Notes under the pieces: model-generated
What the model saw: only the letters and a program-made list of their open reading frames with translations
Databases searched by the model: none
What the model was told of the DNA's origin: nothing
From: Candidatus Iainarchaeum sp.
GTDB taxonomy: Archaea > Iainarchaeota > Iainarchaeia > Iainarchaeales > VGJJ01
Reading direction: 5' to 3'
DNA: 32,000 nucleotides
Assembly (NCBI GenBank): GCA_030688545.1
Contig: JAUYHT010000006.1
Location: 180,001 to 212,000, forward strand
Position numbers and translations under genes: made by a program
In this document: positions 1,558-20,897 of the stretch, piece by piece
Numbering within the stretch: position 1 is the stretch's first letter
Layout: every line of letters begins with the position of its first letter

Positions 1558-1616
1558 GGCCGTTTTCGTCCGGCCGCACCGAGGGACGTGGGAGGTCATT
1601 GACCTCCCAGCGGCCG
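1558..1616 (+). repeat. tRNA-like module A1 (59 nt), first half of dimeric element E1
   Basis: 5' GGCCGTT and 3' AGCGGCC+G can form a 7-bp acceptor-like stem. Inner hairpin is GGGAGGTC-ATT-GACCTCCC. An alternative local hairpin is GGCCG-N8-CGGCC. The 5' end resembles tRNA-Asp (18667-18737). Confidence 0.6.
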
Positions 1617-1655
1617 GAACAATTTGTTTCATTCCAATGTCCACTTTTCAACCAG

Positions 1656-1714
1656 GGCCGTTTTCGACCGGCCGCACCGAGGGACGAGGGGGATTTACAA
1701 TCCCCCGGCGGCCG
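1656..1714 (+). repeat. tRNA-like module A2 (59 nt), second half of dimeric element E1
   Basis: Same 5' GGCCGTTTTCG..CCGGCCGCACCGAGGGACG core as A1. The inner hairpin sequence differs but still pairs (GGGGGAT-TTACA-ATCCCCC). The 3' GGCGGCC+G closes on GGCCGTT. Confidence 0.6.
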
Positions 1715-1749: not shown

Positions 1750-1794
1750 CGTTCGCCCGGCCGCACCGAACCCGGGGTATCTACGAAACCCCTG
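1750..1794 (+). repeat. Degenerate module A3
   Basis: CGTTCGCCCGGCCGCACCGA core followed by hairpin GGGGT-N9-ACCCC. It lacks the 5' GGCCG arm. Confidence 0.4.
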
Positions 1795-1814
1795 AAGAAA
1801 AGATATAGATTAAC

Positions 1815-1858
1815 TCGTCCGGCTGCTCCGAAGGATGAGGGGAATTCTGTAAACCTCT
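1815..1858 (+). repeat. Degenerate module A4
   Basis: TCGTCCGGCTGCTCCGAAGGATG is homologous to the A1 core TCGTCCGGCCGCACCGAGGGACG. It is followed by a weak hairpin AGGGG..CCTCT. Confidence 0.35.
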
Positions 1859-1861
1859 GGA

Positions 1862-1963
1862 AATGACTTCCTCCGCGGCCTAAAGGCCGGGGTATCCATG
1901 CAGAGCTAGAACGTCAATCGGCTCGCGTGATCGCTCGCCCAACAATGGGCGACGAATGTCGCC
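1862..1963 (+). repeat. 102-nt direct repeat, copy B1
   Basis: About 93% identical by eye to 2125-2226 (7 differences counted). It contains hairpins CGGCC-TAAA-GGCCG and GGCGAC-GAAT-GTCGCC. Its 5' end (GACTTCCTCCGCGGCC) resembles the 3' end of module A1 (GACCTCCCAGCGGCC). Confidence 0.7.
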
Positions 1964-2101: not shown

Positions 2102-2124
2102 CGGCCTTTTTTCTAAAAAGGCCG
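2102..2124. repeat. Palindromic T-run hairpin CGGCCTTTTT-TCT-AAAAAGGCCG
   Basis: Perfect 10-bp stem. A truncated copy (TTTTCTAAAAAGGCCGA) recurs at 2347-2363. It belongs to the same NNNCCTTTT..AAAAGGNNN family as 1975-2077 and 18793-18813. Confidence 0.6.
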
Positions 2125-2226
2125 AATGACTTCCTCCGCGGCCTAAAGGCCGGGGTATCCATGTAGAGCTAGAACGTCAATCGGCTCGCGCAATCGCTCG
2201 CCAAAAACTAGGCGACGAATGTCGCC
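2125..2226 (+). repeat. 102-nt direct repeat, copy B2
   Basis: Matches 1862-1963. It is followed by GGGCGAGGCATATCACCTTTTTCGCCGGCC (2232-2261), which repeats 2078-2106. Confidence 0.7.
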
Positions 2227-2274
2227 CTGAAGGGCGAGGCATATCACCTTTTTCGCCGGCCTTCATCGTAAACA

Positions 2275-2364: not shown

Positions 2365-2511
2365 TTAGACCTTCTGGATTAGGCTCACGATAATCAATAG
2401 GATGGCGATGACCAACAGCACGTGGATTATTCCTCCAATACTGGGCAGGCCGATGAATCCTAGGAGCCAGAGAACCAAAATGACGATGGCAATAGTTTGA
2501 AGTGTGTTCAT
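2365..2511 (-). CDS. Small membrane protein, lmo0937/DUF5670-like family
   Basis: MNTLQTIAIVILVLWLLGFIGLPSIGGIIHVLLVIAILLIIVSLIQKV fits the WLLG..GG.IH.LLVIA pattern of this family. A GAGGAGG SD-like motif lies ~10 nt upstream of ATG 2511. The track ORF starts further upstream at 2547. Confidence 0.6.
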   Translation of the reverse strand: MNTLQTIAIVILVLWLLGFIGLPSIGGIIHVLLVIAILLIIVSLIQKV

Positions 2512-2630
2512 AGGAAGAACCTCCTCACCACCCATTCGGTGCTTCAAGAATATATATGGTTACTTTCCCCATTTCCTTATTTGACCTCTTTGGAGGGTTT
2601 TTCAGGTCATTTTCAGGATTTCAACTGTCC

Positions 2631-4413: not shown

Positions 4414-6711
4414 ATGAAGATTGGCGGTTTTGAAGTTGGCCCGTACGCGGTGAAGGAGTCCGGGGGAAAGAAGCACCTCATTTATGCGTGCAAGGATTGC
4501 GTGTATGGCGCGTCCCTCGCGGACGATCCGCATTGCCGATTCCACATCTTAACCATTCTTCAGAAAGTCGAAGCCGACCTCATCGTTCTCGCGGATGTGT
4601 ATGAGCGGGTCTATGATGAGAAGCAAACAGTAGAGTGGAAAGAGATCGCCGACCTCATTGGGTATTTCCGTTCCGCGGAGCTGTGGGCCTACTCCCATTT
4701 AGGGGACGCGGACACGGAGAGCGAGGCAGAGTTCGGGGCGCGCCATGATGAAGTGATGCAGATCACGTATGAGGTGCTCTCCTTCGATCCCATCAAGGCC
4801 TATCTCAAACTCCTCGCCGCCGTCAAGCGGGAGACCATGAAAAGCAAGCAGGGGAGCGGTTCCAAGGTATACCTGCAGACCCTCCAGGATATCCGCCAAG
4901 GGTTCGAAAAAACAGCCCTCATCCGGCGCACGAAGGAATATTTAGTCAAACTTGAGAGCATCCCTAATTCCACGGAGTTGTACCGTCATTTCTATGAGGC
5001 GGAGATCAAACCCTCCTTCATTGGCTCGCGCCTCATGTTCGGTCAGGAGATTGAGAATTTCGAGCTGATCGATGAGTATGCGGTGGCCAAATCGAATGTC
5101 CAGATTTTCAACCACCCCCATAAAGTGGCTAAACTCTATTTCGTGAATCCCCCCGAGTATTCTTTATCCCCTGAAAAATATTTTCTTCTCTCCAAGACCA
5201 AAGAAGTGGTCTCCGGCTACAATCCAGGGCGAAGCGGCCTCTCGGACGCGGCGGCGACCCGCACTTATTTCGTACGGGTGTACCAGGCCACCATCCGAGA
5301 TTTGGCCAAACGCAATAACATCCATCTCGCCCCCGAGGAAGTGGAGGAATTGGCGGAAATTGTTTCCAGGTACACCGTGGGGTATGGTATCCTGGAAGTA
5401 CTATTGGGCGACCGGAAGATCACCGACATTTTCTTAGATTCCCCCATCGGGAGCAAACCCGTGTACATTGTGCACGCGGATTATGGGCATTGCTTGACCA
5501 ATATTCTTTACACCGAAAACGAAGCGGAAGCCTTCGTCTCCAAGCTCCGTGCCATGTCTGGAAGGCCCTTCGATGAGGCCCACCCCGTGCTTGATTTCGA
5601 TCTCCAGGGTCAGGAAACCCGTGTCGCGGTTATTGGAAAGCCTTTGGCCCCGGATGGCACGGCCTTCGCATTCCGTCTGCACAAAACAACCCCCTGGACA
5701 CTGGAGCAATACATCGACAACAAATTCATCTCTCCCTTAGCCGCGGGCATGCTCTCATTCTTCATAGATAACAAAGCCACTATGCTCGTGACGGGCTCCC
5801 GGGGGGCGGGAAAAACCTCCCTTTTGGGGGCGATGATGCTTGAGATTTTACCCAATGCCCGCATCATCGTTCAGGAAGACACGCTCGAGCTCCCCGTGCC
5901 CTACATGAAGGACATCGGGTTCAATGTGCAACGGTTGAAAACGCGCTCCCCCATTGGGGTGAGCCAGAGCGACTCCGAGGTGTCCCCGGAGGAGGCCTTG
6001 CGCACCGCCTTACGTTTGGGTGATTCCGCCCTCGTTTTGGGGGAAGTGCGCTCGGAGGAAGCGCGTGTGCTGTATGAGGCCATGCGCGTGGGGGCCGCGG
6101 GCAATACCGTTTTGGGAACCATCCATGCTGATTCTGCATATTCAGTGTGGGATCGCGTGGTGAATGATCTCAAAGTTCCCACCACGAGCTTCAAGGCCAC
6201 CGATTTAGTTGTTGTAGCCCGACCCATACGGTTTTCAGGATCATTGAAATCCCATCGCCGCTTGACTCAAATTACCGAGGTCAAGAAGCACTGGACCAAA
6301 GACCCGGATCAGGAAGGGGGGTTGCTGGACCTCATGCTCTATGATGCGCGCATGGATAACCTGGAACTCCTCGAGGATCATTTGAAGGAGAGCGAGCTCT
6401 TCGAGCGCGTGCGTCGCCTCTCAGGATTGACCCTCAACCAGATGTGGGAAGATATTCGCATGAATGCCAACGCCAAACTGCACATGGTGGAGCTCAAGAA
6501 TAGACATTCCATTCCGGAGCTATTAGAGGCCGAATACACCGCGCCCGCCCGGAGCAAATTAGCTCTAATGAAAGACGAGCAGATTCAGCTCCAGGGGAAG
6601 CCGGATTATCCCAAACTATTAAATGAATGGAAGGAGTGGGTGGAGAAGAACACCGTTACTGCGGTGCTCCGCAAACGCAAGCAGCGCCAAGAGGAACAAG
6701 AGGAGGAATGA
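4414..6711 (+). CDS. Type II/IV secretion-family ATPase (archaeal FlaI/PilB/VirB11-like), 765 aa
   Basis: Walker A GSRGAGKTS, Asp box IIVQEDTLEL, Walker B-like LVLGEVRSEEA, His box GTIHADS. It has an N-terminal Cys/His cluster (CKDC..x11..CRFH) and a ~130-aa C-terminal extension ending in an acidic tail. GGAGG lies 11 nt upstream of the ATG. Confidence 0.9.
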   Translation: MKIGGFEVGPYAVKESGGKKHLIYACKDCVYGASLADDPHCRFHILTILQKVEADLIVLADVYERVYDEKQTVEWKEIADLIGYFRSAELWAYSHLGDADTESEAEFGARHDEVMQITYEVLSFDPIKAYLKLLAAVKRETMKSKQGSGSKVYLQTLQDIRQGFEKTALIRRTKEYLVKLESIPNSTELYRHFYEAEIKPSFIGSRLMFGQEIENFELIDEYAVAKSNVQIFNHPHKVAKLYFVNPPEYSLSPEKYFLLSKTKEVVSGYNPGRSGLSDAAATRTYFVRVYQATIRDLAKRNNIHLAPEEVEELAEIVSRYTVGYGILEVLLGDRKITDIFLDSPIGSKPVYIVHADYGHCLTNILYTENEAEAFVSKLRAMSGRPFDEAHPVLDFDLQGQETRVAVIGKPLAPDGTAFAFRLHKTTPWTLEQYIDNKFISPLAAGMLSFFIDNKATMLVTGSRGAGKTSLLGAMMLEILPNARIIVQEDTLELPVPYMKDIGFNVQRLKTRSPIGVSQSDSEVSPEEALRTALRLGDSALVLGEVRSEEARVLYEAMRVGAAGNTVLGTIHADSAYSVWDRVVNDLKVPTTSFKATDLVVVARPIRFSGSLKSHRRLTQITEVKKHWTKDPDQEGGLLDLMLYDARMDNLELLEDHLKESELFERVRRLSGLTLNQMWEDIRMNANAKLHMVELKNRHSIPELLEAEYTAPARSKLALMKDEQIQLQGKPDYPKLLNEWKEWVEKNTVTAVLRKRKQRQEEQEEE

Positions 6712-6712
6712 T

Positions 6713-7087
6713 ATGGTTCGACCGGGTGGAAAAAGATGGAAGCGTCGGTCCAAAAAAAAACCTACAAAGTACAGTAGCAAAAAAGGCAGAGAACATTTGG
6801 AAGAAAAAGAAAAACGCGCCAGATTAGAAAATTTAGCTGAACAGCGGGAACAAATATCTGAAAGAGGCCGATTACAGAAGATTAGTGAGCTTACCAATAG
6901 ACTTCCACACATTTCTACCATGAACAAAAGAGAATTGGAGAAGGCGCGGCGGCAGTTCATAGCCGATAGGCGGATTCCAATAGAAATACGGGATATATTA
7001 AAAAAAATGACAACTGAAGAATTCAGACCATGGTGGATCCAGCATACTCATAATCGTATCCGGAGGCTTAAGGAATTGAATAACTAA
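6713..7087 (+). CDS. Lys/Arg-rich, probably coiled-coil protein (124 aa), unknown function
   Basis: ATG 6713 follows the ATPase stop (6709-6711) by 1 nt, with AGGAGG at 6701-6706. The sequence is highly basic (MVRPGGKRWKRRSKKKPTKYSSKKGREHLEEKEKRARLE..). Confidence 0.5.
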   Translation: MVRPGGKRWKRRSKKKPTKYSSKKGREHLEEKEKRARLENLAEQREQISERGRLQKISELTNRLPHISTMNKRELEKARRQFIADRRIPIEIRDILKKMTTEEFRPWWIQHTHNRIRRLKELNN

Positions 7088-7120
7088 TTATGTATACAAT
7101 AAATCACCCTAATCGTTTCC

Positions 7121-7128
7121 TATAAATA
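7121..7128 (+). promoter_or_regulatory. TATA box (tataaata) for the platform gene
   Basis: Centre lies ~26 nt upstream of ATG 7150, implying a leaderless mRNA. Confidence 0.55.
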
Positions 7129-7149
7129 CTGCATCCCGGTTCATGGACC

Positions 7150-9480
7150 ATGCCCCCTCGTTTCGCCGCGCGGCATGCTCCGGGCGCCCCTCCCTCTTCC
7201 CAGGCAGCGTTTCGCCCCCCCTCCATCGGCAAGATGTACCGTGACATCCCATCGGCATCGGATGCCCTATTCACCAAGGAAGACTTGTCCATTCCTCCTG
7301 AGCATTGGTTCCTCCGCTTCTGCCGGGACATGTATAAGCGGTTTCCCGGTTTCGGTGCCAATGCTAGTTTCACTCCCCCCTACCAGGAGGCCTTGGATTT
7401 TCTGGGTTGGAAACTGCGTCCGCACGAATTTGCAGCGGCCATCAAAGGGAGTGCCGTTCTCGTGATAGGCGGGGGTTTCATTCTCGCGGTTCTCCTTGGA
7501 CTGGTGTTTGGCACAACTATTGGTCCCCTCTTGGGAGTGGATCCCCTCATCACCATCATCTACCTCTTCATCCCCTTCATCCTCCTCGGTATTTTAGCCG
7601 CGCATGGGGTGCAATCCTTCCCCCTCAAGGAGGCCCAGCGCGAGCAGATGCGCGCCCTCACTTATGTTCCTGATATGGTGGGCTATATGATCATGTCCAT
7701 GAAACTCGTTCCCAATCTCGAGAAAGCCGTTGAGTTCGCGGCCGAACATGGAAAGGGACGCATTTCCTTTGAATTGAGGCGCATCATCTGGAATACGCAG
7801 TTGGGCATCTACAACACCATCGCCGAAGGATTGGATGATCTCGCTTACAAATGGGGAAAATATTCCACCGAATTCAAGCAGGCGTTGATGAATATTCGCG
7901 CGTCAGTATTGGAGAACACCGAGGCCAAGCGCTACCAATTGCTCGACAAGACCATGGAGGATGTCCTTGAAGGGGTGCAGGGAAAGATGGAGCAATATGC
8001 CCGCGAGCTTTCCCAACCGTCCACCGCCCTATTCTATATCGGTGTCCTCCTCCCCCTCATCCTCATCATCATTCTCCCGGTGGGAAGCGCCTTCTCGGGT
8101 TCCCCTTTGGCGCAGCCCTTCATCCTTTTCCTCATCTACAACATCGGCCTCCCTCTGTTAGTTATTTGGTTCGGGATGCAATTGCTGGCTACTCGCCCCC
8201 CCACGTATGTTCCCCCCACGATCCCGGATTCCTATCCGGGTCTTCCTCCCAAGAATATGGTAGAAGTGAACAAATCCCCCATGAACATTTGGGTGGTGGT
8301 TTTAGGCATCCTTCTCGTGGGGGGCGCTATTTCAGGTTACCTCCATTTCTATGGGTTGGGCCTCGGCGATCCCACGGAATCCGGGTCACTCTATTTCCTC
8401 CAGCCCGACAAGACATTGGAAACCGTTCTCTCGGGGGACCGGAAACCATTGGACTGGTTCGAGCCCGGGGGGTCGCGCGAACAGCAGCTAATTGAACAAG
8501 GGTTTTCAGCCGAGCGGGCCACGCAAATAGTCAGCACCGAGAAAGCCCGCTTTTTCGCCCAGGTCGAAAACGATGTCACCCCCACCAATCTTATTTTCGG
8601 TCTGCTCATCACGTTTTCGTTTGCCATTTCTTCTTTCGTGGAATTAACCACGAATGCCAAGCGGCGGATCCAGAAAAAATTCATGGTGATGGAATCCGAA
8701 TTCAAGGACTCATTGTACGTATTGGCCTCCCGCCTCGGGGAAAATAAACCCATCGAGGACGCCCTCCGCCATACGCAGACTTTTCTCCCCAACAATTCCG
8801 TTTCCCAAGAGGTTTTCGGCAAAACGGTGGACAACATTCACGTTTTAGGAATGCCCCTCGAGGCCGCGGTGTTCGACCCCGCCTACGGGAGTTTGAAACA
8901 CAATCCCTCCCGCATGATCACCACCTCGATGAAGATTGCCATCGATTCGGTGCAGTTGGGAGTGGGAGTCGCGGCCCGGACGCTTGTATCATTATCCCGA
9001 CAACTTGCCAATTCCGAGCGCGTGAGCAAGATGCTCACCATTTTGATTAAAGACATCACGGGCACCATGAAGTTGGTTTCGGTGTATATTGCCCCCATCG
9101 TTTTGGGCATCACCACGTCCCTCCAGAGAATCGTGGTCGTTACGCTCGTCAGTATCAACGCCACCTCCGCCGAATCCCAACCCCCTCCCAATCTCGCGGG
9201 AAGCATCCCGGGGTTCGACAGCTTCGGCTCGACGGACATAACCTCTTTTATCAAGCCGGACGTCATCGCCTCACTGGCAACACCGGGGGATTTCATGATC
9301 ATCGTGGCAGTATATGTCATCGAACTGGTGCTCATCATGAACTATTTCATCACCCTCATAGAGGAGAACAATGAACTCTCCGCCCGGCGCCACGCGGCCC
9401 GCGCCCTCCCCATCGCAGTCATCCTCTTCGTGGCGAGCGCCATCCTGTCCAATATATTAGTGGCCGGTAACTTCGGCTAA
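7150..9480 (+). CDS. Type IV pilus/archaellum assembly platform membrane protein (FlaJ/TadC/PilC-like), 776 aa
   Basis: Two T2SS-F-like cytoplasmic helical domains (..YVPDMVGYMIMSMKLVPNLEKAVEFAAEHGKG.. and ..FKDSLYVLASRLGENKPIEDALRHT..) are each followed by TM helices. A Pro-rich insert (TRPPTYVPPTIPDSYPGLPP) and an extra-membrane segment lie between them. The gene follows the ATPase directly. Confidence 0.85.
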   Translation: MPPRFAARHAPGAPPSSQAAFRPPSIGKMYRDIPSASDALFTKEDLSIPPEHWFLRFCRDMYKRFPGFGANASFTPPYQEALDFLGWKLRPHEFAAAIKGSAVLVIGGGFILAVLLGLVFGTTIGPLLGVDPLITIIYLFIPFILLGILAAHGVQSFPLKEAQREQMRALTYVPDMVGYMIMSMKLVPNLEKAVEFAAEHGKGRISFELRRIIWNTQLGIYNTIAEGLDDLAYKWGKYSTEFKQALMNIRASVLENTEAKRYQLLDKTMEDVLEGVQGKMEQYARELSQPSTALFYIGVLLPLILIIILPVGSAFSGSPLAQPFILFLIYNIGLPLLVIWFGMQLLATRPPTYVPPTIPDSYPGLPPKNMVEVNKSPMNIWVVVLGILLVGGAISGYLHFYGLGLGDPTESGSLYFLQPDKTLETVLSGDRKPLDWFEPGGSREQQLIEQGFSAERATQIVSTEKARFFAQVENDVTPTNLIFGLLITFSFAISSFVELTTNAKRRIQKKFMVMESEFKDSLYVLASRLGENKPIEDALRHTQTFLPNNSVSQEVFGKTVDNIHVLGMPLEAAVFDPAYGSLKHNPSRMITTSMKIAIDSVQLGVGVAARTLVSLSRQLANSERVSKMLTILIKDITGTMKLVSVYIAPIVLGITTSLQRIVVVTLVSINATSAESQPPPNLAGSIPGFDSFGSTDITSFIKPDVIASLATPGDFMIIVAVYVIELVLIMNYFITLIEENNELSARRHAARALPIAVILFVASAILSNILVAGNFG

Positions 9481-9501
9481 AACTTTTTGGGAAAAAGTTT
9501 T
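9479..9501. terminator. Palindromic T5 hairpin AAAACTTTTT-GGG-AAAAAGTTTT overlapping the platform stop codon
   Basis: Perfect 10-bp stem with a T5 run on both strands. Oligo-T is the archaeal termination signal. Confidence 0.45.
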
Positions 9502-9678
9502 ATCAAAAAACGAAAAAAAAGAAGGAAAAATGTTTACCAAAAAAAAGGAAGATGCGTGAAAATGCGACCCCGATATCCGTCGACCAATTGGAATACCATA
9601 AATAAAAAGTTTCCTTCATCCGTCAAGAGTACGAAAAGGAATCCAACCAAAACTCCCACATTACCCCACGGCCGAATA

Positions 9679-10152
9679 ATGGGTAACCGGGGGCAAGCCT
9701 TCGAGGCGTACCGCGTGCTCATCGCCGGGGTCATTACCCTCGCGGTGCTCGTGATCATCTTCGGCGCGCTGGGCTATTTCGAATCCCTTCGAGAGGACGC
9801 GAGCTATGAGACGCTGTACACGAGCTGGAAATCCGCCGTGGATTCCCCCAATGGAAAAGTAATCATCGCCTCCAAGCTTGCCTTCACCCAAGGCACTATT
9901 TTCTCCCGCCCTCAATTCGCCAGGCAAGTGAACCTTGAGAACGCATGCATCGCCTTGGAAGCGGAGTCTGCGGCCGGTTATCTTCTCAACGATACCAATC
10001 CCGATGCCCCTTTCATCCAGGTTTCGGGGAATATCCTGGGAAACGTGTATATGCAGTGCCGCCCCGACAATTTCATCTTTACTGACCCCCAGGTGGGATG
10101 CTACGTGTACTGCCTCCTCTCCTTCGGTAAGCCTCTGGCGAATACCCCCTAA
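9679..10152 (+). CDS. Type IV pilin-like protein with class III signal peptide (157 aa)
   Basis: MGNRGQAFEAYRVLIAGVITLAVLVIIFGALGYF has a short basic n-region, an RGQ processing motif and a hydrophobic helix. There are four Cys in the globular part. The track's upstream extension (from 9487) is a Lys-rich translation of an A-rich leader. Confidence 0.65.
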   Translation: MGNRGQAFEAYRVLIAGVITLAVLVIIFGALGYFESLREDASYETLYTSWKSAVDSPNGKVIIASKLAFTQGTIFSRPQFARQVNLENACIALEAESAAGYLLNDTNPDAPFIQVSGNILGNVYMQCRPDNFIFTDPQVGCYVYCLLSFGKPLANTP

Positions 10153-10227
10153 ACGCTGGGTATTCCCCTCTCCCCGGCGGCAACCTTTTTATAGCCAAAA
10201 ACGATGGAAAAGCAGGTGATTGGAGAT

Positions 10228-10746
10228 ATGAATTCCCGAGGACAAACTTTTTCGACGTTTCAGTTGCTTATTTCCGCCATCGTGGCCCTGGCCATTTTGG
10301 TGTTGCTTCTTAATATCCTGGATATAATTCCAAAGCAAGACCAGCAAGTTTCAGTCGAGGCCACTAATCTGATTAAGAGCCAAAATAGTCGCCCCTCTGA
10401 ACTGCGGACCTCATCGAATAAAGTAGTGGTAAAGACCGGTGATTCCCTCAATGCGAAATCGCTCGCGAACCAGTCAGGCTCTCTCACAGAGGAGCAATTA
10501 TGTATTTCAAAAGGAGACTTCGCGAACGTCGATGATTTTGCATTCACAGATGCAGATGGAACCATTCTTCGGTTCAATGGTTCCCAGTTGAGCATAAAGA
10601 TTTCAGTGATTTGCGACACGGGTTCGGAGTTGGAGGGAGATTTACTAACCAACGGAATTTCAGATAACTGGATGGATAGCCCCCAGTGCCAGGATGTTGC
10701 CCAGCTACAACAACAAGGATGTATTGTCGCGTTGCGCTACGCATAA
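10228..10746 (+). CDS. Type IV pilin-like protein with class III signal peptide (172 aa), paralog 1
   Basis: MNSRGQTFSTFQLLISAIVALAILVLLLNIL. GGAG lies 5 nt upstream of ATG 10228. Four conserved Cys are shared with the next gene. Confidence 0.8.
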   Translation: MNSRGQTFSTFQLLISAIVALAILVLLLNILDIIPKQDQQVSVEATNLIKSQNSRPSELRTSSNKVVVKTGDSLNAKSLANQSGSLTEEQLCISKGDFANVDDFAFTDADGTILRFNGSQLSIKISVICDTGSELEGDLLTNGISDNWMDSPQCQDVAQLQQQGCIVALRYA

Positions 10747-10764
10747 TAAAACGAAAGGAGTGAT

Positions 10765-11292
10765 ATGATTATGAATTTCCGAGGACAAGCCTTTTCGACA
10801 TTCCAATTGCTCATCGCGGCCGTGGTGGCGCTCGCCATCTTGGTATTGCTTCTGAATATCATCGGTAGCCTCCCCTTCCTGAGCACCCAAAAACCGTCCA
10901 CTGAATCAGTGAATCTGATCAAATCCCAGGTGAATGAACCCGGGGCCCTACGCACGAGCAACCGTCTCATTTTCGTGAGGGACGATTCCCTGAATACGCG
11001 CGCCATCGCATCTTCTTCAGGAATCCTTACCGAAGCCCAATTGTGTATCTCCAAGGGCGACCATGAAGATACAAGTGAATTCGAGTTCACATCCATCACG
11101 GAAGGGGATGTCCTCCGCTACAATGGCTCCCAATTAGGAGTGAAGATATCCGTCCTCTGCGACACGGGCACCGAACTCCAGGATGATCTCCTCAACAATG
11201 GGATTGATGAGGACTGGTTGGGGAATGAAAAGTGCTCGGACATCTCCCAATTGAACCAAACCGCCTGCGTCATCGTGCTTCGCTTCGCCTGA
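10765..11292 (+). CDS. Type IV pilin-like protein with class III signal peptide, paralog 2 (tandem duplicate)
   Basis: M(IM)NFRGQAFSTFQLLIAAVVALAILVLLLNII. AGGAG lies upstream, and ATG 10771 is equally possible. It is collinear with 10228-10746 (..LTE.QLCISKGD..NGSQL..KISV.CDTG.EL..DLL.NGI..). Confidence 0.8.
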   Translation: MIMNFRGQAFSTFQLLIAAVVALAILVLLLNIIGSLPFLSTQKPSTESVNLIKSQVNEPGALRTSNRLIFVRDDSLNTRAIASSSGILTEAQLCISKGDHEDTSEFEFTSITEGDVLRYNGSQLGVKISVLCDTGTELQDDLLNNGIDEDWLGNEKCSDISQLNQTACVIVLRFA

Positions 11293-11349
11293 CCGCTTTC
11301 GAGCGGTCGTCCCGATGGACGTGGGAGGTCGTTGACCTCCCAGCGGCCG
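11291..11349 (+). repeat. tRNA-like module A5 (59 nt), first half of dimeric element E2; starts inside the pilin stop codon
   Basis: GACCGCTTTCGAGCGGTCGTCCCGATGGACGTGGGAGGTCGTTGACCTCCCAGCGGCCG aligns to A1 without gaps. Paired substitutions keep the 5' hairpin intact (GACCGC/GCGGTC versus GGCCG/CGGCC). Confidence 0.6.
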
Positions 11350-11368
11350 AAATGATTTGTGTTCTAAT

Positions 11369-11390
11369 GGCCGTTTCGTCCAGCGGCACG
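11369..11390 (+). repeat. Fragment A6 resembling the 5' 22 nt of tRNA-Asp
   Basis: GGCCGTTTCGTCCAGCGGCACG versus tRNA-Asp GCCCGTTTCGTCTAGCGGTAGG gives 18 of 22 identical by eye. Confidence 0.5.
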
Positions 11391-11398
11391 CTTTCGAT

Positions 11399-11457
11399 GG
11401 CCGTTTTCGTCCGGCCGCCCCGAGGGACGAAGGAGGGTTACACCCTCCCGGCGGCCT
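11399..11457 (+). repeat. tRNA-like module A7 (59 nt), second half of dimeric element E2
   Basis: GGCCGTTTTCGTCCGGCCGCCCCGAGGGACG core, inner hairpin GGAGGGT-TAC-ACCCTCC, and 3' GGCGGCC closing on GGCCGTT. Confidence 0.6.
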
Positions 11458-11548
11458 TAATATTCAGTTTAATCCGGAGCCACGCGTCCTATTCGAATGG
11501 CAGAACCAAAAAAGAAGTCTTTAATTTCCCGTCAAGCCCCATAAACGC

Positions 11549-11555
11549 TTAATAA
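11549..11555 (+). promoter_or_regulatory. TATA-like box (ttaataa) for the small class III signal-peptide ORF
   Basis: Centre lies ~25 nt upstream of ATG 11577, the same leaderless spacing seen at other genes here. Confidence 0.4.
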
Positions 11556-11576
11556 CTCTGGTTCCGGTGTCAACGC

Positions 11577-11741
11577 ATGAAAAGGTCCCTTTGGGAAGAT
11601 AACATCGGCCAGGGCGAATTCAATTCCCTATACATGATTCTCATCCTCGTCATCGCCGCCCTACTCCTGATCACCGTAGTAAAACCCATGTTCCGACAAT
11701 CCCAGGGACTTTCCACTAAAACCCCTGTCGTGGGTAGCTGA
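11577..11741 (+). CDS. Small class III signal-peptide protein (54 aa), putative minor pilin
   Basis: Below the 60-aa cutoff of the ORF track. Own translation: MKRSLWEDNIGQGEFNSLYMILILVIAALLLITVVKPMFRQSQGLSTKTPVVGS. The GQGEF + hydrophobic helix resembles the archaeal 'Class III signal peptide' family (PF04021-like). Confidence 0.5.
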   Translation: MKRSLWEDNIGQGEFNSLYMILILVIAALLLITVVKPMFRQSQGLSTKTPVVGS

Positions 11742-11789
11742 CCGGCATTTTCCGAAACCTATTTAGTGACCAGATTCCTCCATTTCATC

Positions 11790-12386
11790 ATGCCCGGAAA
11801 GAATCACCCCCTCCCAGTCCCGCCTCCGAGGGTCAGGAGACCCATGCCTACTGTCAAAAATAGAGTTGCCGCAGGGCTCGCCGCCATTGGATTGGGATTA
11901 TTTGCCGGCAGGATGACTTATAGCTATTCCCACGGTAAGTCATTCCACGTCCATTCCAGAGCAATGCAAGCCAGGATAGACCGACACCAAAATCCGACCC
12001 TCCATGATCTGATGCAGGTTTTGAGCAAGCCCGATGCGGATCGAATCGCCGCGTTGTCCGCGTCGCTTTACTTAAAAGCCCAGAAAGATTCAGCCTTGAT
12101 GAATAAAATGGCGAAGCAGGCCACCGAGACAGGAAAATACGACGTCAACCAACTCCCCCTCGACACGATCACATCTTTTTTCACCCCGGCCCAGCAGAGC
12201 GAGTTATCGAAATTAGCCGAAAATTATCCGACGGAACTTGTTAATTGGTCTAAGATTCATTTCCCCAAGCTGATCCAGAAGAGCAGGAAACGGGCGCGAG
12301 ACACCGGAGTCGCCGTCGGGATAATGGTAGGATTATTAGGTTTGGCGATTATCGATGGGGTGTTATCCCAACGAACAGAGAAATAA
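11790..12386 (+). CDS. Hypothetical protein with hydrophobic segments near both termini
   Basis: ATG 11790 sits ~27 nt downstream of TATA-like ctatttag (11759-11766). The track start GTG 11766 is less likely. No family recognised. Confidence 0.45.
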   Translation: MPGKNHPLPVPPPRVRRPMPTVKNRVAAGLAAIGLGLFAGRMTYSYSHGKSFHVHSRAMQARIDRHQNPTLHDLMQVLSKPDADRIAALSASLYLKAQKDSALMNKMAKQATETGKYDVNQLPLDTITSFFTPAQQSELSKLAENYPTELVNWSKIHFPKLIQKSRKRARDTGVAVGIMVGLLGLAIIDGVLSQRTEK

Positions 12387-18666: not shown

Positions 18667-18737
18667 CGCCCGCTCCGGGAATCGAACCCGGGCCTCCACC
18701 GTGACAGGGTGGAATCCTACCGCTAGACGAAACGGGC
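18667..18737 (-). tRNA. tRNA-Asp (anticodon GTC), 71 nt, no intron, CCA not encoded
   Basis: Hand-folded cloverleaf: acceptor GCCCGTT/AGCGGGC, D arm GTCT-AGCGGTA-GGAT, anticodon arm CCACC-CTGTCAC-GGTGG, 4-nt variable region, T arm CCGGG-TTCGATT-CCCGG, discriminator G. Confidence 0.85.
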
Positions 18738-18758
18738 CGCTTTCGATCGGCCGCACCG
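18735..18758 (+). repeat. Module fragment A8 on the opposite strand, overlapping the first 3 nt of tRNA-Asp
   Basis: GGCCGCTTTCGATCGGCCGCACCG contains the module 5' hairpin (GGCCG-N8-CGGCC) plus the GCACCG core. Confidence 0.45.
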
Positions 18759-18792
18759 TGGAACATGGAGAGATTCACGAAGCGTTTTTCGC

Positions 18793-18813
18793 GAGCCTTT
18801 TCCTAAAAGGCTC
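18793..18813. repeat. Palindromic T-run hairpin GAGCCTTTT-CCT-AAAAGGCTC
   Basis: Same hairpin family as 1975-2124. It lies in the tRNA-Asp upstream region. Confidence 0.5.
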
Positions 18814-18864
18814 CTTCGAATCCTCGGTGGGCCGAACGTAACTACAAAGAATCGTGAAAAAAGC

Positions 18865-18872
18865 ATTTAAAA
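18865..18872 (+). promoter_or_regulatory. TATA box (atttaaaa)
   Basis: Centre lies ~26 nt upstream of ATG 18895. Confidence 0.5.
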
Positions 18873-18894
18873 GGCGGTGGGCCGGAAGAAGAGA

Positions 18895-20050: not shown

Positions 20051-20875
20051 TTAGCAGCTGCATTCCTGCTCTCCCGTTTCCCAGTTACTGGTGACGTAGC
20101 CACAGGCCGTGCACGTGTAGTTCTGGCATCGGTAGCACCCGCCGCACTGGCTGTCACCCTTGCATTGGACGGTTTTGCACGCTCCCGAACTGCTGCAAAT
20201 GCCGGTTGAACCGCAGTCCGAATCCGTCGAGCATTCTTCTCCTTCGTTGCTCGCACCAGGACCTACAAATTGGCAGTCTTCGAAGCAACTATCCTTCGTC
20301 TCCCAGGGATCGCACACGTTGTTTCCACAATTTGGCCGAAAGGTCTCAAGGGAGCAATCCGAAGGGCAATAGTCCGCGTCCTCTCCCGGCTGGCATGCGT
20401 CGTCGCCGCAGGAGGTACCTAAAATATTTTGCAAGGAGCAATCCTGGGGACAACTCTCATATGATTCCCCACCCTCGCACACCCCATTCGCACATTGAAA
20501 ACCGGCGTACGGGCAATCGCCCGGGCAGGTTTCATAGGCCTCCCCATTGTCACATATTGTATTCCCGCATACTGCCGCCGGCAGAACCGAAGGCCCGCAG
20601 TCCTGCGGACAAGAAGTGCTCGTTTCTCCTGGTTCGCACTCGGTGTTTCCGCAGATGTTCCCAAGTTCATTGACTACGCTGCAGTCCTGCGGGCACGTTT
20701 CACGTGATTCTCCCCCTTCACAGATGTGGTTTCCACACGTGAAGGTTAAGGCTTGGACAGGATTCGTATTGACCGTATTCGTCGCGCCCGGGGTTGTATC
20801 ATACGTGTTATTGTTGAGGCAGCCGCTAACTAACAGTAGGCCAAATAAGAGAACAAAAATAGCATTTGCTTTCAT
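20051..20875 (-). CDS. Cys-rich secreted lipoprotein candidate with six CGN..C..GE....CP.DC modules
   Basis: MKANAIFVLLFGLLLVSGC has a signal peptide with a lipobox-like LVSGC. It is followed by six C-x4-C-x9-C-x3-C modules and a Cys-dense C-terminal knot. ATG 20875 sits ~27 nt downstream of TATA 20898-20906. Confidence 0.75.
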   Translation of the reverse strand: MKANAIFVLLFGLLLVSGCLNNNTYDTTPGATNTVNTNPVQALTFTCGNHICEGGESRETCPQDCSVVNELGNICGNTECEPGETSTSCPQDCGPSVLPAAVCGNTICDNGEAYETCPGDCPYAGFQCANGVCEGGESYESCPQDCSLQNILGTSCGDDACQPGEDADYCPSDCSLETFRPNCGNNVCDPWETKDSCFEDCQFVGPGASNEGEECSTDSDCGSTGICSSSGACKTVQCKGDSQCGGCYRCQNYTCTACGYVTSNWETGEQECSC

Positions 20876-20897
20876 CACGAGCACGAAGCATTATGAA

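Follow-up and report, generated by a model that had tools for sequence, protein, structure and literature searches.

A stretch of 32,000 nucleotides (nt) from Candidatus Iainarchaeum sp. (contig JAUYHT010000006.1, positions 180,001-212,000, forward strand), called the window below, was analysed with respect to a short structured element that begins inside the stop codon of a pilin-like gene and recurs elsewhere in the same DNA. To judge by the names of identical or near-identical proteins, the organism belongs to the 'Candidatus Diapherotrites', a clade of DPANN archaea, and the sequence of the window is also present in the NCBI metagenome-assembled genome GCA_034375545.1 and in the Logan run SRR13727534. 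The DPANN archaea are uncultured, have tiny genomes and attach to their hosts by surface structures such as pili. To our knowledge, cis-acting RNA elements and small repeats are almost undescribed in this group. An archaeal type IV pilus-like operon occupies positions 4414-11292 and encodes the ATPase and the polytopic membrane protein listed in Table 1 and three small proteins having class-III-signal-like N-termini. The last gene of the operon, termed pilin paralog 2, terminates in TGA (11290-11292) according to the list of open reading frames (ORFs) with their translations. The pilins gave no match in Pfam or NCBIfam, and they are taken to be pilins from the N-terminus and the operon context. 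The membrane protein of 54 residues encoded downstream has no family match either; the TTAATAAC motif located about 20 nt upstream of its gene may be a TATA box of its own.

The repeated module at the pilus locus

The element is a 59-nt module present in four intact copies (A1, A2, A5 and A7), every one on the + strand, and in three degenerate copies (X, Y and Z) within the 32 kb. The 23-nt core pattern was matched five times as against 0.00 expected, and the covariance-model E values of the four intact copies ranged from 1e-12 to 1e-17. All the copies lie outside ORFs except for a 2-nt overlap at the pilin gene, where the G and A of the TGA are bases 1-2 of A5, as the initial annotation had reported. 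A5 is composed of a first hairpin, H1 (11291-11308), a linker (11309-11322), a second hairpin, H3 (11323-11341), and a tail (11342-11349) with the sequence AGCGGCCG; the arms of its H3 are GGGAGGTC and GACCTCCC around a GTT loop. The coordinates of all copies and of the neighbouring genes are collected in Table 1.

Table 1. Positions of the module copies, the spacers and the associated genes in the window and in the loci of relatives (L numbers); aa, amino acids; R1 and R2, search models
Feature	Sequence	Positions	Strand	Remarks
Module A1	window	1558-1616	+	covariance model 87.7 bits
Spacer of first dimer	window	1617-1655	+	GAACAATTTGTTTCATTCCAATG...
Module A2	window	1656-1714	+	covariance model 84.2 bits
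Degenerate copy Y	window	1755-1800	+	12.9 bits, E 0.32; weak
Degenerate copy Z	window	1812-1881	+	21.6 bits, E 0.0055
FlaI/PilB-type ATPase	window	4414-6711		operon gene; PF00437 and NCBIfam matches
Polytopic membrane protein	window	7150-9480		operon gene; 776 aa
Last pilin-like gene (paralog 2)	window	10765-11292	+	operon gene; 175 aa; N-terminus MNFRGQ/AFSTFQLL
Module A5	window	11291-11349	+	R2 77.9 bits
Dimer spacer	window	11350-11398	+	AT-rich part (AAATGATTTGTGTTCTAATG), then truncated H1-like fragment 11369-11398
Module A7	window	11399-11457	+	covariance model 81.8 bits; R2 73.4 bits
Membrane-protein gene	window	11577-11741	+	54 aa; conserved, adjoins pilin in relatives too
Degenerate copy X	window	18735-18798	+	22.4 bits, E 0.0037 (21.7 bits in another model search); end also placed at 18788
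Orthologue	L076	1240-1298		59 nt; starts at A and G of TAG; R1 26.6 bits, R2 68.7 bits
Orthologue	L062	16154-16208		55 nt; starts at AA of TAA; followed by TTTTATTTT
Orthologue	L064	9058-9120		63 nt; 22 nt past TAG; followed by TTTT
Inverted copy	L064	2075-2136	opposite	R2 39 bits, E 9e-6
Inverted copy	L059	9939-10000	opposite	R2 33 bits, E 1e-4

The alignment of A5 with A1 was gapless over 59 nt, in agreement with the initial annotation, and 50 of the 59 positions were identical; the 5' half accounted for 18/26 and the 3' half for 32/33. A1, A2 and A7 are mutually 80-83% identical (47-49/59), the value for their 5' halves being 92-96%. The correspondence of A7 to A2 was likewise confirmed, both carrying a TAC loop on different stems: H3 of A7 is GGAGGGT TAC ACCCTCC and that of A2 is GGGGGATT TAC AATCCCCC, which is close to the H3 of the L076 orthologue. 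The H1 of A7 is GGCCG..CGGCC. The dimer at 11291-11457 aligned over its full length with 1558-1714, including the beginning of the spacer (ATTTGT..AATG), and the similarity of the two dimers ended at the outer module edges, which bears out the proposal that a composite unit of about 160 nt had been duplicated. An ORF running through the dimer (11232-11552) was rejected as coding sequence, as it overlaps the pilin gene out of frame and its sequence is absent from relatives.

The surroundings of the other copies were also analysed. A1 begins 4 nt from the TTTATAAA box, the TATA box of a divergent giant surface-protein gene whose ATG lies at 1522 on the minus strand. Copy X stands head-to-head with the tRNA-Asp gene (18667-18737, minus strand), overlapping the tRNA 5' end by 3 nt. 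Copy Y has retained the core TTCGCCCGGCCGCACCGA and a TAC-loop hairpin with loss of both ends, while Z runs into the 3' end of an HgcC-like RNA encoded on the minus strand. It is the H1 end that points to a gene boundary in A1 (the TATA box of the giant surface-protein gene), in X (base 1 of tRNA-Asp) and at the pilin stop codon; the loci are so few that this can be taken only as a lead. One Logan contig of SRR13727534 ends within A5, and the contig SRR13727534_7838 ends, by calculation, at about window position 11401, that is, at the start of A7, as is expected of a multi-copy repeat.

Two-hairpin structure and position in relatives

Each module folds into the GC-rich hairpin H1 of 6-8 base pairs (bp), a linker of 12-15 nt with a loosely conserved GCNCCGRNGGAC / GCGCGGAAGTTA motif, the hairpin H3 of 7-11 bp with free sequence and usually a 3-nt loop, and a short tail, in a total of 59-63 nt (for the shorter L062 copy see Table 1). 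H1 covers positions 1-18 and H3 positions 33-51. The helices were evaluated on an alignment of seven sequences comprising the window copies and the orthologues. In H1 (positions 1-6 with 13-18) 90.5% of the cells were paired, with both-side changes in two of the six pairs, 1:18 and 2:17 (G-C to A-U). The corresponding values for H3 were 89% and six of eight pairs. The covariation score of H1 and H3 together was reached by 0/500 shuffles, and on sliding the partners by 1-3 columns only 36-49% of the cells could pair. The two paired substitutions that had been claimed for the 5' hairpin of A5 against A1 were found as described, namely 2:17 from G-C to A-T and 6:13 from a T/C mismatch to C-G. The minimum free energy (MFE) fold of A5 (-32.9 kcal/mol, z -3.5) is the two-hairpin form, in which H1 together with the pair U11290.G11309 makes an 8-bp stem holding the entire UGA and closed by a UUCG loop. 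The H1 loops vary across the copies (TTTCGA, TTCCGA, AGACCT, ATCCT, TCACCT). The conserved object is H1, linker, H3 and tail, and not a cloverleaf.

The initial annotation had described the dimer as tRNA-like and had suggested that it forms or stabilises the pilin 3' end in the manner of tRNA punctuation, as in mitochondria or the plant t-elements; the element would then be cut by RNase P and/or tRNase Z. One ground for this idea is that A1, A2 and A7 can adopt a three-way junction closed by the 7-bp stem GGCCGUU/AGCGGCC, beyond which one 3' base is left unpaired (G in A1 and A2, U in A7); this fold echoes the tRNA-Asp acceptor GCCCGUU/AGCGGGC+G. The 5' halves of these three copies are nearly identical, and therefore they lend little independent support to such a fold; the informative compensation resides in A5, and it favours the alternative 5' hairpin over the acceptor stem. 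In the alignment the acceptor-like stem was paired in 77.6% of the cells with both-side changes in 2/7 pairs, stem 2 was paired in 57% with no double changes, and both stems fail in the L076, L062 and L064 orthologues. A fragment of the dimer spacer does resemble the 5' end of tRNA-Asp, as claimed (11369-11390, 18/22 identical, core 15/16), and the whole piece 11369-11398 scored above the shuffles (1/2000 as high). It is the only such piece: for the modules A1, A2, A5 and A7 themselves, 757-1946 of 2000 dinucleotide shuffles matched tRNA-Asp as well or better. ARAGORN reported only the tRNA-Asp on the window and nothing on the modules, and the Rfam tRNA and viral tRNA-like models had no module match, even at E<=10. 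A T-arm with a 7-nt T-loop (GTTCRANYC) was not seen; the H3 loops measure 3-5 nt, mostly 3, and are variable (ATT, GTT, TAC, TTC, GCG, TATA). An RNase P-type cut 5' of base 1 would moreover take away the last two bases of the stop codon, G and A, so that the pilin mRNA would be without a stop. The adjacency of copy X to tRNA-Asp notwithstanding, processing as a tRNA mimic is regarded as highly improbable and the tRNA-like nature is given up; the role at the 3' end that had been proposed along with it is plausible and gains support from the comparative data below.

The syntenic loci of relatives were reached through the homologues of the ATPase and the pilin, the ATPases being 69-81% identical. 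A single module was found 3' of the last pilin gene in three of the relatives, and in two of the three H1 begins inside the stop codon. Every orthologue folds into two hairpins (z -3.2 to -4.5). Three different stop codons contribute bases to H1, and in two of the three genomes the partners have changed to match; in L062 the second A of the stop faces a C, while in L076 the entire UAG lies within the H1 stem. H1 and linker of A5 are identical to those of L064 at 22 of 24 nt, though the two ATPases are only 81% identical. At the pilin locus the element lies between the stop codon and a TTAATAA-type motif preceding the next gene. A T-tract follows the hairpins in L064 (TTTT) and in L062 (TTTTATTTT), and TTT or TT in the window copies; in L076 no T-run longer than TT occurs between the module and the TTAATAA motif.

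Empty sites, which the initial annotation had proposed to look for in related genomes, were present in L059, L070 and L061, where the spacer between the pilin gene and the next gene is 14-45 nt. L074 has a different hairpin at that site. In L075 and L067 a pilin homologue is followed by oligo-T tracts (T7/T6) with no module in between. Oligo-T tracts of this kind are archaeal terminators, so the transcript end may well fall at this position. Two further contigs having the same pilin as L070 (L068 and L069, 3540-5200; ENA contigs with a coverage label of about 0.6) continue after the pilin gene with 1.6 kb of frameshifted-looking sequence without the element, probably owing to poor assembly. 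The pilus ATPase of several relatives (P0008, P0009, P0053 and others; L061, 10001-13852) carries an intein with a LAGLIDADG homing endonuclease (PF14890, PF14528), which the ATPase of the window does not have.

Copies in the opposite orientation were detected in L064 and L059, that of L059 recurring in L060, a second contig with the same ATPase. The H1 end of these inverted copies adjoins the ATG of the pilus ATPase gene, and on the gene strand the H1 loop is a Shine-Dalgarno sequence, GGAGGTGA in L064 and AGGTGA in L059. A TATA-like box upstream of them is conserved in L064, L059 and the window, so that the same hairpins would stand at the 5' end of the operon mRNA; the inverted copies probably lie in its 5' untranslated region. 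The operon of L064 is bracketed by inverted copies with H1 pointing inward. Long-range pairing between the 5' and 3' copies of L064 was considered and rejected, as only 12/18 positions in H1 are complementary and each copy keeps its own H1 stem by compensatory change (GACCGG/CCGGTC against GACCGC/GCGGTC), which argues for local hairpins rather than end-to-end pairing.

The search with R2, the covariance model built on the two-hairpin structure, covered about 157 kb including a contig of the same genome and yielded only five single copies in relatives, where the L060 hit duplicates that of L059; the loci of relatives, roughly 130 kb of this total, contained neither the dimer nor dispersed copies. 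No related family was found among the repeats inside those loci. The dimer spacer (ATTTGT..TAATG) and the pilin-downstream spacer of relatives look alike by eye, with a similarity not above shuffles (p ~0.1). Beside the TATA box of the giant surface-protein gene, L059 has GACCGCTTCCG (8237-8247), which equals the first 11 nt of the pilin-3' module of L064, and L064 has GGCATCCTGCGC at the same site (335-346), the position of A1 in the window; the latter resembles H1 of L062. R2 gives no detection of either segment. They may be truncated old copies.

The databases were also scanned. Rfam 15 contains no family for the module, the best overlapping matches reaching 8.8-13.4 bits at E ~1-9. A scan of 596 Gb of genomes with TTCGNNCGGCCGCNCCGNGGRAC returned 54 single matches, nearly all from GC-rich bacteria, and all look like chance; two archaeal loci among them reached at most 14.8 bits with model R1. 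The looser 28-nt pattern gave two matches in the Joint Genome Institute (JGI) metagenomes, both in GC-rich coding DNA, and three scans of viral contigs gave none or GC-rich coding matches without H3. A protein search with the six-frame translated dimers, meant for spurious ORF calls over other copies, found nothing.

Possible role and mode of spread

The retention of the pilin-site position in four lineages and of the stems by compensation makes a cis-acting 3' hairpin module the best-supported reading. It would belong to a lineage-restricted family of short structured intergenic repeats resembling REP sequences (repetitive extragenic palindromes), with the pilin copy acting at the mRNA 3' end; we give this reading as a whole a rough probability of 0.45. 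The 35 nt before the element are coding and lack a promoter-like AT-rich box, which argues for co-transcription with the pilin gene. A5 would accordingly make up the untranslated 3' part of the message of the last pilin gene, and its H1 would begin within the stop codon or immediately behind it. The two stable hairpins and the T-rich stretch that follows would most likely define the 3' end of the pilin mRNA and protect it from 3'-to-5' decay, and would also insulate the downstream gene and its promoter, so that the pilin message could outlast or outnumber the downstream message. The function would be carried by the hairpins, not by a tRNA-like shape. Within this genome the module would have given rise to the dimer by duplication and to further copies in at least two more intergenic places, and the copies would have exchanged segments, as is typical of REP-like repeats or of miniature inverted-repeat transposable elements (MITEs). 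The repeat, its two hairpins with their compensatory changes, its orthologous position, the empty sites and the lack of tRNA features are shown by the analysis; transcription within the pilin mRNA, the stabiliser or terminator role and this mode of spread are what we infer from the sequence comparisons.

Several observations weigh against this cis-acting role. The strand and the RNA-level role have been deduced from DNA; Watson-Crick hairpins form on either strand or in single-stranded DNA, and only one G-U pair (in the H3 of L062) favours RNA of the + strand. The T-runs after H3 are short in the window (TTT, TT), where a hairpin terminator calls for a run of at least 4-5 T directly behind the stem, and a simple terminator scan of 11000-11900 found 0 sites. 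A1 and A2, upstream of a divergent promoter, and X, at a tRNA 5' end on the other strand, are not 3' of + strand genes; their placement reaches beyond a 3'-end role unless these copies are by-products of the spread or are active in either orientation. The relatives were sampled around the pilus locus, and the association with pili may partly be an effect of sampling. Finally, no transposase, terminal inverted repeat or target duplication accounts for the spread.

A5 is a mosaic, its 5' half being close to L064 (22/24) and its 3' half close to A1 (32/33), and it reads as an old orthologous copy mixed with the repeat consensus of this genome. Outside this genome, neither the dimer nor A1/A2 or X/Y/Z was encountered. 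The pilin-site copy is the old and orthologous one, and the dimer and dispersed copies are new. The initial annotation was thus right about the duplication, and its view of the pilin copy as a mere second copy does not fit the age of the 5' half. A purely selfish mobile or duplicative repeat could produce such an expansion: MITE- or REP-like, or similar to the palindrome-associated transposable elements (PATEs), it would use the hairpins for recognition by a hypothetical transposase or recombinase and would have found in the pilin stop a tolerated site. The dimer, the dispersed and the degenerate copies peculiar to this genome, the two Logan contigs that end in or at copies, the empty sites, the two orientations among the relatives' copies and the A5 mosaic are all compatible with it, and so are the 7-nt inverted termini GGCCGTT/AGCGGCC of window copies. 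These termini are confined to A1, A2 and A7, A5 having one mismatch; they are absent in the L064 and L062 orthologues and weak in that of L076. Comparison of the flanking sequences, for single modules as well as for both dimers, showed no shared direct repeat that would mark a target-site duplication at any junction. The translated ORFs of the window that reach 150 aa or more include no recognisable transposase or integrase, and a Pfam search of ten ORFs, including those of unknown function flanking the copies, gave none. A recognition hairpin with an H3 varying so freely would be odd, and the retention of one site behind the last pilin gene by four lineages, the compensation in both stems and an H1 and linker so well kept across a protein divergence of about 20% count against such a repeat. 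A purely selfish origin is considered rather unlikely.

The region 1523-2630 measures 1.1 kb in the window as compared with 53-93 nt in relatives. It is non-coding and repeat-rich, lies between the giant surface-protein gene and an archaeosortase gene, and holds only a membrane ORF of 60 aa (2365-2547, minus strand). HgcC-like sequences of about 100-135 nt each occur at 1851-1953 and 2116-2252 (both minus strand) and at L063 1-100. The two window copies, a 102-nt repeat, are 93% identical and match Rfam HgcC weakly (19.1 and 15.0 bits, the gathering score being 50). A similar hairpin stands at the 3' end of all three, with a GGAGGAAGUCAU-like motif behind it (GGAGAAAGUCAU for the third copy), and the third is situated about 2 kb past the right end of the window, where a Logan contig ends. 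Palindromic, AT-centred CCTTTT-N-AAAAGG motifs were noted at 1975-1995, 2103-2123, 2347-2363 and 18790-18810, one of them at a distance of about 30 nt upstream of an HgcC-like RNA; bidirectional promoters resembling TATA boxes are a possible interpretation. At the tRNA-Asp gene, an insertion of about 110 nt, of which X is a part, separates the tRNA from an ancestral promoter-like motif. The insert (18738-18850) comprises copy X, the palindrome GAGCCTTTTCCTAAAAGGCTC and a TTCGAATCC-like piece, and the motif, CGTGAAAAAAGCATTTAAAA, stands at 18852-18873 in the window and only 20-37 nt upstream of the tRNA in L061. The insertion implies for tRNA-Asp a leader that is long and structured, or else a new promoter. 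Between tRNA-Asp and a peroxiredoxin gene lies the gene of a secreted protein of 277 aa made of Cys-rich repeats (CGNxxCExGE..CPxDC; 20051-20884, minus strand), which forms part of a piece of about 2 kb missing from this place in L061.

The proximity of the tandem arrays to the HgcC-like genes (1851-2252) brings in the question of small RNAs. The modules could yield stable small RNAs, derived from the 3' untranslated region or independent, which act in trans or are bound by a protein through the linker or the H1 loop. Some H1 loops are anti-Shine-Dalgarno-like (UCACCU, AGACCU, AUCCU), those of the upstream copies in L064 and L059 being the exact complement of the Shine-Dalgarno sequence, and the linker motif keeps its sequence, whereas the two stems change by compensation only. 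The loop sequences, however, are not conserved across copies, no promoter-like box stands at a consistent distance upstream of the modules, and neither an Rfam family nor a target can be named, which makes this source of small RNAs unlikely.

The position of copies at gene boundaries of the surface cluster (the giant surface-protein gene with its TATA box, the start of the ATPase gene, the end of the pilin gene) could alternatively mark a site used at the DNA level, to which a regulator of surface genes binds or at which recombination takes place, as in integron attC sites or an inversion site bracketing the pilus operon. The bracketing of the L064 operon by inverted copies would suit an inversion site, and the length, structure and placement after ORFs would suit attC. 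Compensated stems with free sequence point to a folded single strand and not to a double-stranded operator; the attC cores RYYYAAC and GTTRRRY are absent, both orientations occur and copies do not follow each gene. No integrase or invertase was present among the translated ORFs of at least 150 aa, and the operon has the same gene order in the relatives, with no sign of inversion or cassette exchange. A DNA-level site is accordingly considered very unlikely.

A bolder version of the cis-acting hairpin module combines the two ends of the operon. The module might serve this DPANN clade as a dedicated RNA device, with a cap at either end of the pilus-operon mRNA: at the 3' end the stop codon would be locked in H1, and at the 5' end the inverted copy before the ATPase start would present the Shine-Dalgarno sequence in its H1 loop. 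H1 would have to be opened by any ribosome beginning or completing translation, and mRNA stability, or termination and read-through into the following gene, would be coupled to translation of the pilus genes; the extra copies in this genome would have brought other surface-related genes and a tRNA gene under such control. Such a device is put forward as a speculative and improbable extension.

Other candidates were tried and discarded. The core motifs of hammerhead, hepatitis delta virus (HDV)-like and twister ribozymes are absent and gave no Rfam match. CRISPR arrays do not fit 59-nt units which are non-identical and number only 2-4 copies. An archaeal selenocysteine insertion sequence (SECIS) is at odds with a UGA that is the conserved C-terminal stop, relatives having TAA or TAG. 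There was no match to the origin recognition boxes (ORB) of replication origins and no cdc6 gene, and the gene order around the copies, being the same as in relatives, speaks against att scars of integration.

The findings have practical consequences. A conserved module at the pilin end, with its inverted twin at the ATPase start in relatives, is a candidate for the control of pilin expression. A covariance model is now on hand for searching other genomes, and the tempting interpretation as tRNA-like punctuation has been removed. Even if only a selfish repeat, the element probably breaks assemblies, as two Logan contigs end in or at copies.

Comparison with known systems

Integron attC sites, also called 59-base elements, are about 59 nt long, structured rather than conserved in sequence, and follow ORFs. 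The module shares length, location after ORFs and the precedence of structure over sequence; it differs by the lack of R''/R' core sites, by two hairpins in place of one long imperfect hairpin, by the absence of a cassette array and an integrase, and by its occurrence in both orientations.

In haloarchaea a tRNA-like structure before the 5S rRNA defines transcript ends. The t-elements and other tRNA punctuation signals are recognisably tRNA-like, having an acceptor stem and a T-arm, and are substrates of RNase P or RNase Z, whereas the tRNA features of the present element fail. The t-elements of plant mitochondria are structured, abut gene ends and define transcript ends (PMC1920247); of the known systems they come nearest to the idea of the initial annotation. 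The MITEs and PATEs, the latter derived from IS200/IS605, are likewise small, non-coding and multi-copy, present or absent among relatives, with hairpin-forming ends at which assemblies break. The module in contrast has no target-site duplication, shows terminal inverted repeats only in the copies of this genome, has no related insertion sequence known, and includes one orthologous copy with compensation.

The REP sequences stabilise the upstream mRNA. Like them and the bacterial interspersed mosaic elements (BIMEs), the module is a short GC-rich hairpin repeat, intergenic, often just past stop codons, single or clustered, lineage-specific and subject to exchange between copies. It is unlike them in being archaeal (DPANN), in having two unlike hairpins with a conserved linker and not one palindrome, in its direct rather than alternating tandem copies, and in lacking a GTAG head in the modules. 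No transposase of the REP-associated tyrosine transposase (RAYT) type was present among the window ORFs of at least 150 aa, of which ten were searched in Pfam. The copy number of REP/BIME is tens to hundreds per genome, as compared with four intact and three degenerate copies in 32 kb here. Small repeats have been reviewed (PMC3184786).

With archaeal oligo-T terminators and bacterial intrinsic terminators the element shares its location, behind a stop codon and ahead of the next promoter, and TTTT tracts stand behind the hairpins of L062 and L064. It differs from them in its two hairpins with a conserved linker, the weak T-tract in the window, and the inverted 5' and dispersed copies. For the overlap with the stop codon a precedent exists in Pyrobaculum, where the C box RUGAUGA of C/D box sRNA (small RNA) genes supplies the upstream stop codon in 23 cases (PMC6009581). 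In both situations a non-coding element on the same strand gives with its first bases the stop of the upstream gene. The overlap is a stem in the module, in which no C, D, C' or D' boxes are present; the C box RUGAUGA and the D box CUGA were in none of the modules. The systems closest in kind are the REP/BIME sequences, the MITE-like repeats and the hairpin terminators, together with the Pyrobaculum C/D sRNA genes for the overlap with the stop codon.

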